Origin: Escherichia coli
Lineage (GTDB): Bacteria; Pseudomonadota; Gammaproteobacteria; Enterobacterales; Enterobacteriaceae
NCBI RefSeq assembly: GCF_024223415.1
Contig: NZ_CP100501.1
DNA length: 64,000 bases
Direction: 5' to 3' (one strand)
Below, piece by piece: positions 18,752 to 18,818 of this stretch. The notes under the pieces are model-generated. The model was not told the DNA's origin. It saw nothing but the letters and a program-made list of their open reading frames with translations, and ran no database searches. The translations under genes were made by a program, and so were the position numbers. Positions within the stretch are counted from its first letter, which is position 1; each line of letters starts with the position of its first letter.

Positions 18752-18818
18752 CCATCTTAACTTCCAAAGGGTACTCCCGCCGACATAAGGCGGGAGTACC
18801 CTTTGGAAGTTAAGATGG
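18752..18818. repeat. perfect 30-bp inverted repeat with 7-nt loop
   Basis: ccatcttaacttccaaagggtactcccgcc gacataa ggcgggagtaccctttggaagttaagatgg, about 145 bp downstream of trbC stop. Confidence 0.7.

Follow-up and report, generated by a model that had tools for sequence, protein, structure and literature searches.

A perfect plasmid palindrome near trbC almost certainly derived from the left end of an IS200/IS605-family transposon

What is a long and perfect palindrome doing between a cluster of insertion sequences (ISs) and trbC on an Escherichia coli plasmid, and where did it come from? The palindrome lies in a 64,000-nucleotide stretch of contig NZ_CP100501.1, hereafter the window. The initial annotation of this DNA had described a 30/30 stem with a 7-nt loop at 18752–18818, placed it just outside the end of an IS256-family element and downstream of the trb genes, and remarked on the lack of a flanking U-run; it offered a protein-binding or recombination site, or a buffer guarding the trbABC operon from IS read-through, as possible functions. 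Repeat finding and direct reading of the sequence bear out the description, with the same feature extending one base pair further: the whole perfect inverted repeat occupies 18751–18819 (no strand assigned), and its arms, 18751–18781 and 18789–18819, are complementary at 31/31 positions around the 7-nt loop GACATAA. The unit common to the four sequence contexts compared below, which runs from CCAT to ATGG with 30-bp arms, spans 18752–18818. The placement holds as well. The trbC gene occupies 18963–21236 on the minus strand, so that the palindrome lies 144 bp beyond its end and sits between convergent transcription units. From 18709 on, the window is homologous to an IncI-gamma plasmid that lacks the ISs, which puts the end of the IS256-family element ~43 bp to the left of the palindrome.

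The hairpin is stable far beyond chance. As single-stranded DNA, the palindrome folds with −38.8 kcal/mol, against −8.0 ± 2.1 kcal/mol for 200 dinucleotide shuffles (z = −14.4), none of which folded as well. At least 10 IncI/K plasmids whose assemblies are independent of one another carry the palindrome at 100% identity, which rules out an assembly artefact. An intrinsic (rho-independent) terminator was rejected, since such a stem-loop is followed by a T/U run: no T-run follows the palindrome on either strand, the flanks reading AAAACCG on the plus strand and GGAGGATG on the minus strand, and terminator and promoter scans of 18400–19300 returned nothing, terminators being absent from both strands. 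A curated RNA or repeat family (ERIC and others) was likewise rejected. No Rfam family reached its gathering score; mir-5984 alone was reported, at 52.4 and 49.3 bits on the two strands against a gathering score of 95, a sub-threshold microRNA-precursor artefact of the sort typical for any long hairpin.

The palindrome is also no part of the neighbouring IS256- or IS3-family elements: in pEGY2 the IS3-family end stands at another distance from it, IS-free relatives keep the flank up to the CCAT, and the palindrome occurs elsewhere without those ISs. The IS3-family element to the left of the palindrome has features of its own, an ALIL frameshift pseudoknot (RF01497, 116 bits, window 18042–18158, minus strand) and a terminal inverted repeat at 18448–18494 ending ...CCCGGGGCGGTTCA; it truncates the IS256-family element (end ~18708), which in sibling plasmids carries astA.

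A BLAST search of the region against plasmids found the palindrome alone recurring in unrelated plasmid records and pointed to its source. In the IncI2 plasmid pMRSN346638_64.5, the first 45 nt of the palindrome (CCATCTTAACTTCCAAAGGGTACTCCCGCCGACATAAGGCGGGAG) stand immediately beside a gene annotated as IS200/IS605 tnpA and the tnpB that diverges from it. This parent IS is an 1818-bp element with divergent tnpA and tnpB, found in IncI2 plasmids, phage If1 and elsewhere; its limits were drawn by comparing L004 (2512–4333) with phage If1 (97.1% identity over 1831 nt). Its TnpA is an IS200-type Y1 transposase (NF033573, 142 bits, cut-off 55) that also scores weakly against the model for REP-associated tyrosine transposases, and its TnpB matches NF040570 (360 bits, cut-off 100). 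The empty IncI2 site reads ...ctccCCAT/atatgactc and the occupied site CCAT/CTTAAC...GGAGGATGTCAA/atatgactc (slashes mark the joints), from which it follows that the element measures 1818 bp and inserted exactly 3′ of CCAT without target duplication. Each copy inspected (phage If1, L006/L007, L026 and L029/L030) has CCAT 5′ of its left end (LE). In the LE, the CCAT target is followed by 18 nt and then by an 8-bp hairpin, whose foot has the guide GGTA on its 5′ side; the right end (RE) is laid out as GAAT-hairpin-AGGATG-TCAA/, where TCAA ends 10 nt from the hairpin foot. The native LE is a quasi-palindrome already, TCCAAA-GGGTA-stem-loop-stem-GGGAA-TTTGGA. IS683, tried as a name for the parent IS, turned out to be a different element, and papers call the parent merely an ‘IS200 element’. 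We take its layout to be IS605-type, with tnpA and tnpB diverging as in IS605.

With the parent element in hand, the palindrome can be read from left to right. It opens with CCAT (18752–18755, plus strand), the target/cleavage tetranucleotide (TAM/CL); the host sequence of relatives stops directly 3′ of it, and the IncI-gamma plasmid pRM10042-1 (L001) matches the window up to here. There follow LE nt 1–41 (CTTAAC...GGCGGGAG; 18756–18796, plus strand), 100% identical in a blastn comparison of the 1818-bp IS with the window; the left arm, the loop and the first 8 nt of the right arm together equal CCAT plus LE nt 1–41. This segment comprises the LE tip CTTAACTTCCAAAG, with the guide GGTA (18770–18773, plus strand) complementing CCAT position by position, and the putative TnpA-type hairpin CTCCCGCC-GACATAA-GGCGGGAG (18774–18796, plus strand), which has the LE hairpin fold and is assigned by the IS608 rule. 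Beyond the hairpin the native LE reads GGGAATTTGGACGGGCTT (and continues GGGAATTTGGACGGG); at this position the window has TACCCTTTGGAAGTTAAG (18797–18814), the mirror of LE nt 1–18, which reads CTTAACTTCCAAAGGGTA on the minus strand. In the blastn comparison, IS nt 1–26 aligned with 18814–18789 on the minus strand. The palindrome closes with ATGG (18815–18818), a minus-strand CCAT and thus the second target tetranucleotide, where host homology resumes; ATGGA is common to the relatives, and both pRM10042-1 and an IncK2/Z plasmid (L002) read ...cagttATGGaaaaccgacataag at this right junction.

Both strands carry CCAT, 14 nt, GGTA and the hairpin. The palindrome has the identity to the IS terminus, the 5′ CCAT without duplication, and the hairpin with complementary guide that characterize an IS200/IS605 LE, and it resolves, at the level of sequence, into two CCAT–LE joints, one per strand, arranged around one common LE hairpin. 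That it derives from an IS200/IS605-family LE with its target mirrored on itself is therefore nearly certain. The initial annotation had held that its proposals would fall if the palindrome proved to be the terminal structure of a known IS; such a structure it is, and the IS in question is neither the IS256- nor the IS3-family neighbour. The suggestion of a protein-binding or recombination site survives in a loose sense, in that the palindrome derives from the module that TnpA recognizes and cleaves in an IS200/IS605-family LE, and lies at a rearrangement junction. The 64-kb window holds no part of the IS beyond LE nt 1–41 and their mirror, with no tnpA, tnpB or cognate RE, for which reason a complete, autonomous IS200/IS605 element was rejected. 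Insertion of the IS into a pre-existing palindrome was rejected too, since the other IS end in L004 lacks a second palindrome half and the empty site has no palindrome.

The architecture is that of IS608 from Helicobacter pylori, which has the target TTAC, the guide AAAG and a subterminal hairpin (He et al. 2011, PMC3201880; Morero et al. 2018, PMC5934647). In both cases the target lies directly 5′ of the element, the hairpin stands 18–19 nt inside, and the target is complementary to a 4-nt guide on the 5′ side of that hairpin's foot; the parent IS further shares the RE layout GAAT-hairpin-6 nt-TCAA/ and the pairing of a Y1 TnpA with TnpB. Unlike IS608, the target is CCAT rather than TTAC, and the window carries only 41 nt of LE followed by their mirror, without transposase gene, RE or element body.

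To learn how often this arrangement occurs, we surveyed PLSDB, complete E. coli genomes, a collection of one genome per species, and JGI/IMG. About 160 PLSDB plasmids contain the plain LE, and 16 of these have the full palindrome (16/72,556 plasmids). Among complete E. coli genomes, 111/5426 gave a match and 15/5426 contained the full palindrome; 136 of the 144 match places lay on plasmids, a count that covers all matches to a 75-nt query and consists mostly of plain LE copies. A palindrome-specific 17-mer had seven matches in species-representative genomes, in unrelated taxa and at chance level, and a palindrome-specific 20-mer had none in metagenomes and none in viral contigs. The 16 PLSDB records fall into four unrelated contexts, each bounded by CCAT...ATGG and with no intermediate arm lengths: the trbC-proximal site of IncI/K plasmids, as in the window; SSU5-like IncFIB phage-plasmids such as pEC16-2; the Klebsiella plasmid pINF237_02, near ccdB; and Klebsiella FDAARGOS_775 unnamed3 together with a second site in pINF237_02, beside a DUF2913 gene. 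In CP032835, two copies of the palindrome lie at different places in one plasmid. In both Klebsiella contexts, LE nt 7 has changed from T to C, and a complementary A>G change in the opposite arm preserves perfect pairing. The C variant of nt 7 also occurs in an independent LE (L026), and other copies have a 1-nt deletion there. The existence of an arm-matched C variant, together with that of a natural C-type LE, indicates that both arms were drawn from one LE allele and that the palindrome arose more than once.

Comparison with palindrome-free relatives shows what happened to the host DNA at these sites. Wherever such a relative exists, the host sequence breaks directly 3′ of the top-strand CCAT, and in three of the four contexts the right side resumes at an ATGG that the relatives already possess. 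Relative to pRM10042-1, the window matches on the left up to ...TTGACATCCTCCAT and on the right from ATGGAAAACC..., with 200 bp there in place of the 59-bp core here; the IncK2/Z plasmid can be compared only to the right, where the shared sequence begins within the 200 bp, ~36 bp before their end, and runs through the same ATGG. In pEC16-2, compared with its siblings (pLR-48_2), the left flank runs to ...ACGATCAACCAT and the right flank from ATGGCTGCTTG..., and 166 bp, including part of a small ORF, have been replaced. In pINF237_02, a ColE1-like flank up to CCAT is joined to an unrelated ccdB-region flank beginning at ATGG. In the fourth context, the left flank is part of an IS3-family transposase gene as far as CCAT (and three chance bases beyond) and the right flank is the DUF2913 region, where relatives read ATAG or AAGA, not ATGG. 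From these alignments, the palindrome appears to mark a deletion or a novel joint in all four contexts, with break points that coincide with opposite-strand targets in at least three. The base beyond ATGG is not the complement of the left flank in three of the four contexts. An RE-type cleavage site (TCAA/) at the right junction was rejected, as only L020 fits, by chance (GTCAATGG), and L001 and L021 do not.

The 200 bp missing from the window (L001 2548–2747) are themselves the relic of an older insertion by a related IS, oriented the other way. Nucleotides 58–104 of this segment match IS nt 1690–1736, in the tnpB 3′ region, at 93.6% over 47 nt, a match that presumably covers the ωRNA-coding region as well, and the relic also holds an RE-like GAAT-hairpin-AGGATG-TCAA. 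In addition, L001 2534–2545 equals IS nt 1807–1818. The relic explains why TTGACATCCTCC, the reverse complement of the RE tip GGAGGATGTCAA, occurs in the window at 18743–18754 (minus strand) as an older RE remnant that overlaps the left CCAT, and it indicates that this IncI-type region has been hit repeatedly by the parent IS family. A second, imperfect palindrome, TTGACATCCTCCAC-GCCCTGACGAAT-GTGGAGGAATGTCAA with a 12-nt centre, lies at 18921–18960 (no strand assigned), directly 3′ of the trbC stop; both of its strands end in the RE tail ...AGGA(A)TG-TCAA, and it folds at −11.9 kcal/mol (z = −4.8). It is present in the IncI-gamma (L001) and IncK2/Z (L002) plasmids and is therefore older. Judged by its sequence, it may be an RE–RE counterpart of the LE–LE palindrome. 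The 13-bp direct repeat TTGACATCCTCCA (at 18743 and 18921) was considered as the target duplication of a 178-bp insert and rejected, both occurrences being RE-like relics that are also found in L001.

Taken together, a model for the origin of the palindrome emerges, to which we assign an even chance of being correct: the palindrome would be the fossil junction of a CCAT-targeting IS200/IS605-family element, formed by two opposite-strand LE joints that collapsed at the LE hairpin. At every site the right junction coincides with the 4-nt target, and in three of the four contexts the next base breaks the mirror symmetry, which makes random microhomology rejoining after fold-back unlikely, and both junctions look transposase-made. 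In the model, two LEs would have been joined to two CCAT sites on opposite strands, ~200 bp apart in the window. The simplest source would be two convergent copies of the IS with their LEs facing outward. The resulting 1.8-kb inverted repeat with a 166–200-bp spacer would snap back during replication; having advanced 22 nt along the stem, a polymerase would reach the first self-complementary motif, the 8-bp stem of the LE hairpin, where the nascent end GGCGGGAG could pair equally well with the opposite arm and a template switch could take place. Such a switch would delete both IS bodies and the spacer and leave CCAT-LE(1–41)-rc(LE 1–18)-ATGG, where rc denotes the reverse complement; the predicted two-copy collapse product is CCAT-CTTAACTTCCAAAGGGTACTCCCGCC-(GACATAA or TTATGTC)-GGCGGGAGTACCCTTTGGAAGTTAAG-ATGG. 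An alternative source that would yield the same product is a single double-strand break whose two resected 3′ tails took up LE-bearing strands; these tails would expose opposite strands, which would account for the short distances, and the hairpin stems would then anneal.

The template-switch step builds on the instability of long inverted repeats with a short spacer in E. coli. Work from the Leach, Sinden and Liu laboratories reportedly established that long inverted repeats in this organism are deleted by replication template switching. The palindrome resembles the products of such deletions in that the centre is lost, the end points fall at short repeats in the arms, and a short, tolerated palindrome is left; it would differ from them in having two transposon copies as arms and a transposase-binding hairpin as switch point. 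A switch at such a hairpin would make the product sequence-defined and let it recur in unrelated places. Convergent, LE-outward pairs of full copies do exist, with long spacers. The plasmid p14EC029a (L028, NZ_CP024142.1) carries two full IS copies at 2042–3859 (plus) and 10830–12647 (minus), or 2038–3859 and 10830–12651 with the 4 nt outside each LE, which are convergent with LEs outward and a spacer of 6970 bp, and NZ_LT906557 carries a further convergent, LE-outward pair of full copies. Separately, p14EC029a holds an extra solo GGAGGATGTCAA that ends at 10528, between a hok gene and the RE of the second copy. No inverted IS pair with a short spacer was seen, and queries that combined flank and IS sequence found no PLSDB record in which a full IS occupies one of the two CCAT sites in the window or phage-plasmid context. 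Two opposite-strand insertions within 166–200 bp are unlikely a priori, so that the model needs either survivorship, short-spacer pairs collapsing and long-spacer pairs persisting, or the double-strand-break variant.

Among the competing explanations, origin from a single IS copy fares best, and we consider it unlikely. Here, fold-back synthesis at the LE hairpin would copy the tip and CCAT back on itself, and the strand would rejoin downstream by microhomology or by a further TnpA-mediated LE-to-CCAT transfer, with deletion of the IS and adjacent DNA. One insertion would be enough; the native LE quasi-palindrome is of the classic kind that templated correction turns into a perfect palindrome, fold-back copying would produce arm-matched variants automatically, and the ATGG(A) at the right junction could act as the microhomology. 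Yet rejoining by microhomology predicts arms of varied length, whereas all four contexts (4/4) end exactly at the 4-nt target, with the next base departing from the complement of the left flank in 3/4. A second transposase-type joint thus seems to be required, which leaves this route no simpler than the two-copy pathway, and no single-copy precursor was found at the window or phage-plasmid site.

A somewhat more doubtful proposal is that the palindrome is a non-autonomous mini-element, REPIN-like or PATE-like, whose 59-bp core or 67-bp unit is moved in trans by the TnpA of the IS. Since both strands present a complete LE, the unit would be cut on both and pasted between opposite-strand CCATs, replacing the DNA between them. 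The succession of CCAT, 14 nt, GGTA and hairpin on either strand suits such a unit, as do its identical boundaries in four unrelated contexts, the two copies at separate sites in CP032835 and the identity of copies of the same variant, and REPINs set the precedent of a mobile hairpin doublet served by a related Y1 enzyme (PMC3116915). However, the unit has no RE, and no TCAA or CCAT lies 3′ of the hairpin on the same strand, so that known single-strand excision could not free it. It is never a simple insertion, as DNA was lost or exchanged in 4/4 contexts; it is very rare (16/72,556 plasmids, 15/5426 E. coli genomes), with no specific match in species-representative genomes, metagenomes or viral contigs; and the arm-matched C variant would need an origin of its own from a C-type LE in any case.

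Membership in either of the known classes was rejected. PATEs are miniature IS200/IS605 derivatives, described for example from Haloquadratum (PMC3119063). Like PATEs and other MITEs, the palindrome is short, non-coding, built from IS200/IS605 ends and preceded by the family target; a PATE, however, keeps LE and RE and makes a simple insertion, whereas the palindrome has two LE halves and no RE and is always accompanied by a deletion or novel joint. Its right arm is rc(LE 1–18) plus ATGG, not an RE, and 200 and 166 bp of host DNA are missing from two contexts while the other two join foreign flanks. A true PATE-like derivative of the parent IS does exist, a ~241-nt miniature at 353–597 of metagenome contig OGXH01025229.1 (L026) that consists of CCAT, LE nt 1–62 and RE nt 1657–1818, with the LE C variant and a G>T change in the hairpin stem. 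REPINs are REP doublets that form hairpins and are served by RAYT/TnpA-REP (Bertels & Rainey 2011, PMC3116915). Like them, the palindrome forms a hairpin and symmetrically doubles the recognition module of a Y1 HUH enzyme that is a relative of IS200 TnpA. In contrast to the two separate REP hairpins of a REPIN, present in tens to hundreds of chromosomal intergenic copies alongside a single-copy RAYT gene, it has one central hairpin, occurs in a handful of copies on plasmids only, and has no RAYT; copy number, chromosomal location and RAYT linkage all speak against a REPIN or REP-BIME.

The remaining proposal, a selected regulatory structure acting near trbC as a bidirectional transcription barrier, an mRNA-stabilizing 3′ hairpin or a protein-binding site, draws on the very stable hairpin and its place between convergent transcription units 144 bp downstream of trbC, and is very improbable given that there is no U/T tract or terminator call, no Rfam family at threshold, no palindrome in IncI-gamma and IncK2/Z plasmids with the same trbC end, an identical sequence in the phage-plasmid and occurrence in Klebsiella multireplicon plasmids amid unrelated surroundings, and a sequence wholly accounted for as an IS end. 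The read-through buffer for trbABC put forward initially fails for the same reasons: the palindrome recurs in three other contexts unrelated to the trb genes or these ISs, close relatives have 200 bp of other DNA in its place, and it has no terminator signature. On this plasmid today the palindrome probably has no selected function and would at most form a stable 3′ hairpin on the trbC transcript. With a cognate TnpA present, it could be a two-faced cleavage substrate that is nickable on either strand.

IS200/IS605 elements are regarded as seamless transposons without footprints, and it is from their TnpB nucleases that Cas12 descends. We found no description of an LE–LE palindromic IS200/IS605 footprint in open-access full text, where searches for the palindrome sequence, or for an IS605/TnpA hairpin with inverted duplication or template switching, returned nothing; a target-bounded, hairpin-centred class of footprint thus appears undescribed. 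For this plasmid, the finding replaces a supposed regulatory element with a scar, the trace of 200 bp that have gone missing between the pemK-side module and trbC. If the fossil-junction model is true, IS200/IS605 elements are able to delete or fuse plasmid DNA precisely from target to target, and such events would be recognizable by the succession of target, LE up to the hairpin, mirrored tip and mirrored target. The scar class also suggests, in testable form, how transposon ends could turn into REPIN-like hairpin doublets. A broader conjecture, which we judge improbable as a whole, is that an unrecognized, recurrent footprint pathway of IS200/IS605 elements is at work: TnpA would join LEs to opposite-strand CCATs, for instance on the resected tails of a break possibly made by TnpB at the vacated site, and fusion at the LE hairpin would give a TAM-bounded, two-faced palindrome with the DNA between deleted, maybe still a TnpA substrate and possibly a proto-REPIN, which would show REP/REPIN-type doublets in the course of arising from transposon ends.

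The search for copies of the parent IS also bears on existing database records. Phage If1 (L005, NC_001954) contains a full copy at 3001–4831, inside what the record calls the ‘major intergenic region’; its ‘ORF348’, annotated as eryA-like, stands at the place expected for tnpB, and the 1994-era annotation seems to have missed the transposon. Two unverified ‘phage’ records of 1.8–1.9 kb (L006 and L007; OR851489 and OR845631) consist largely or partly of the parent IS, with 91.7% identity over 1780 nt in L006, and are probably mislabelled host or plasmid contigs.
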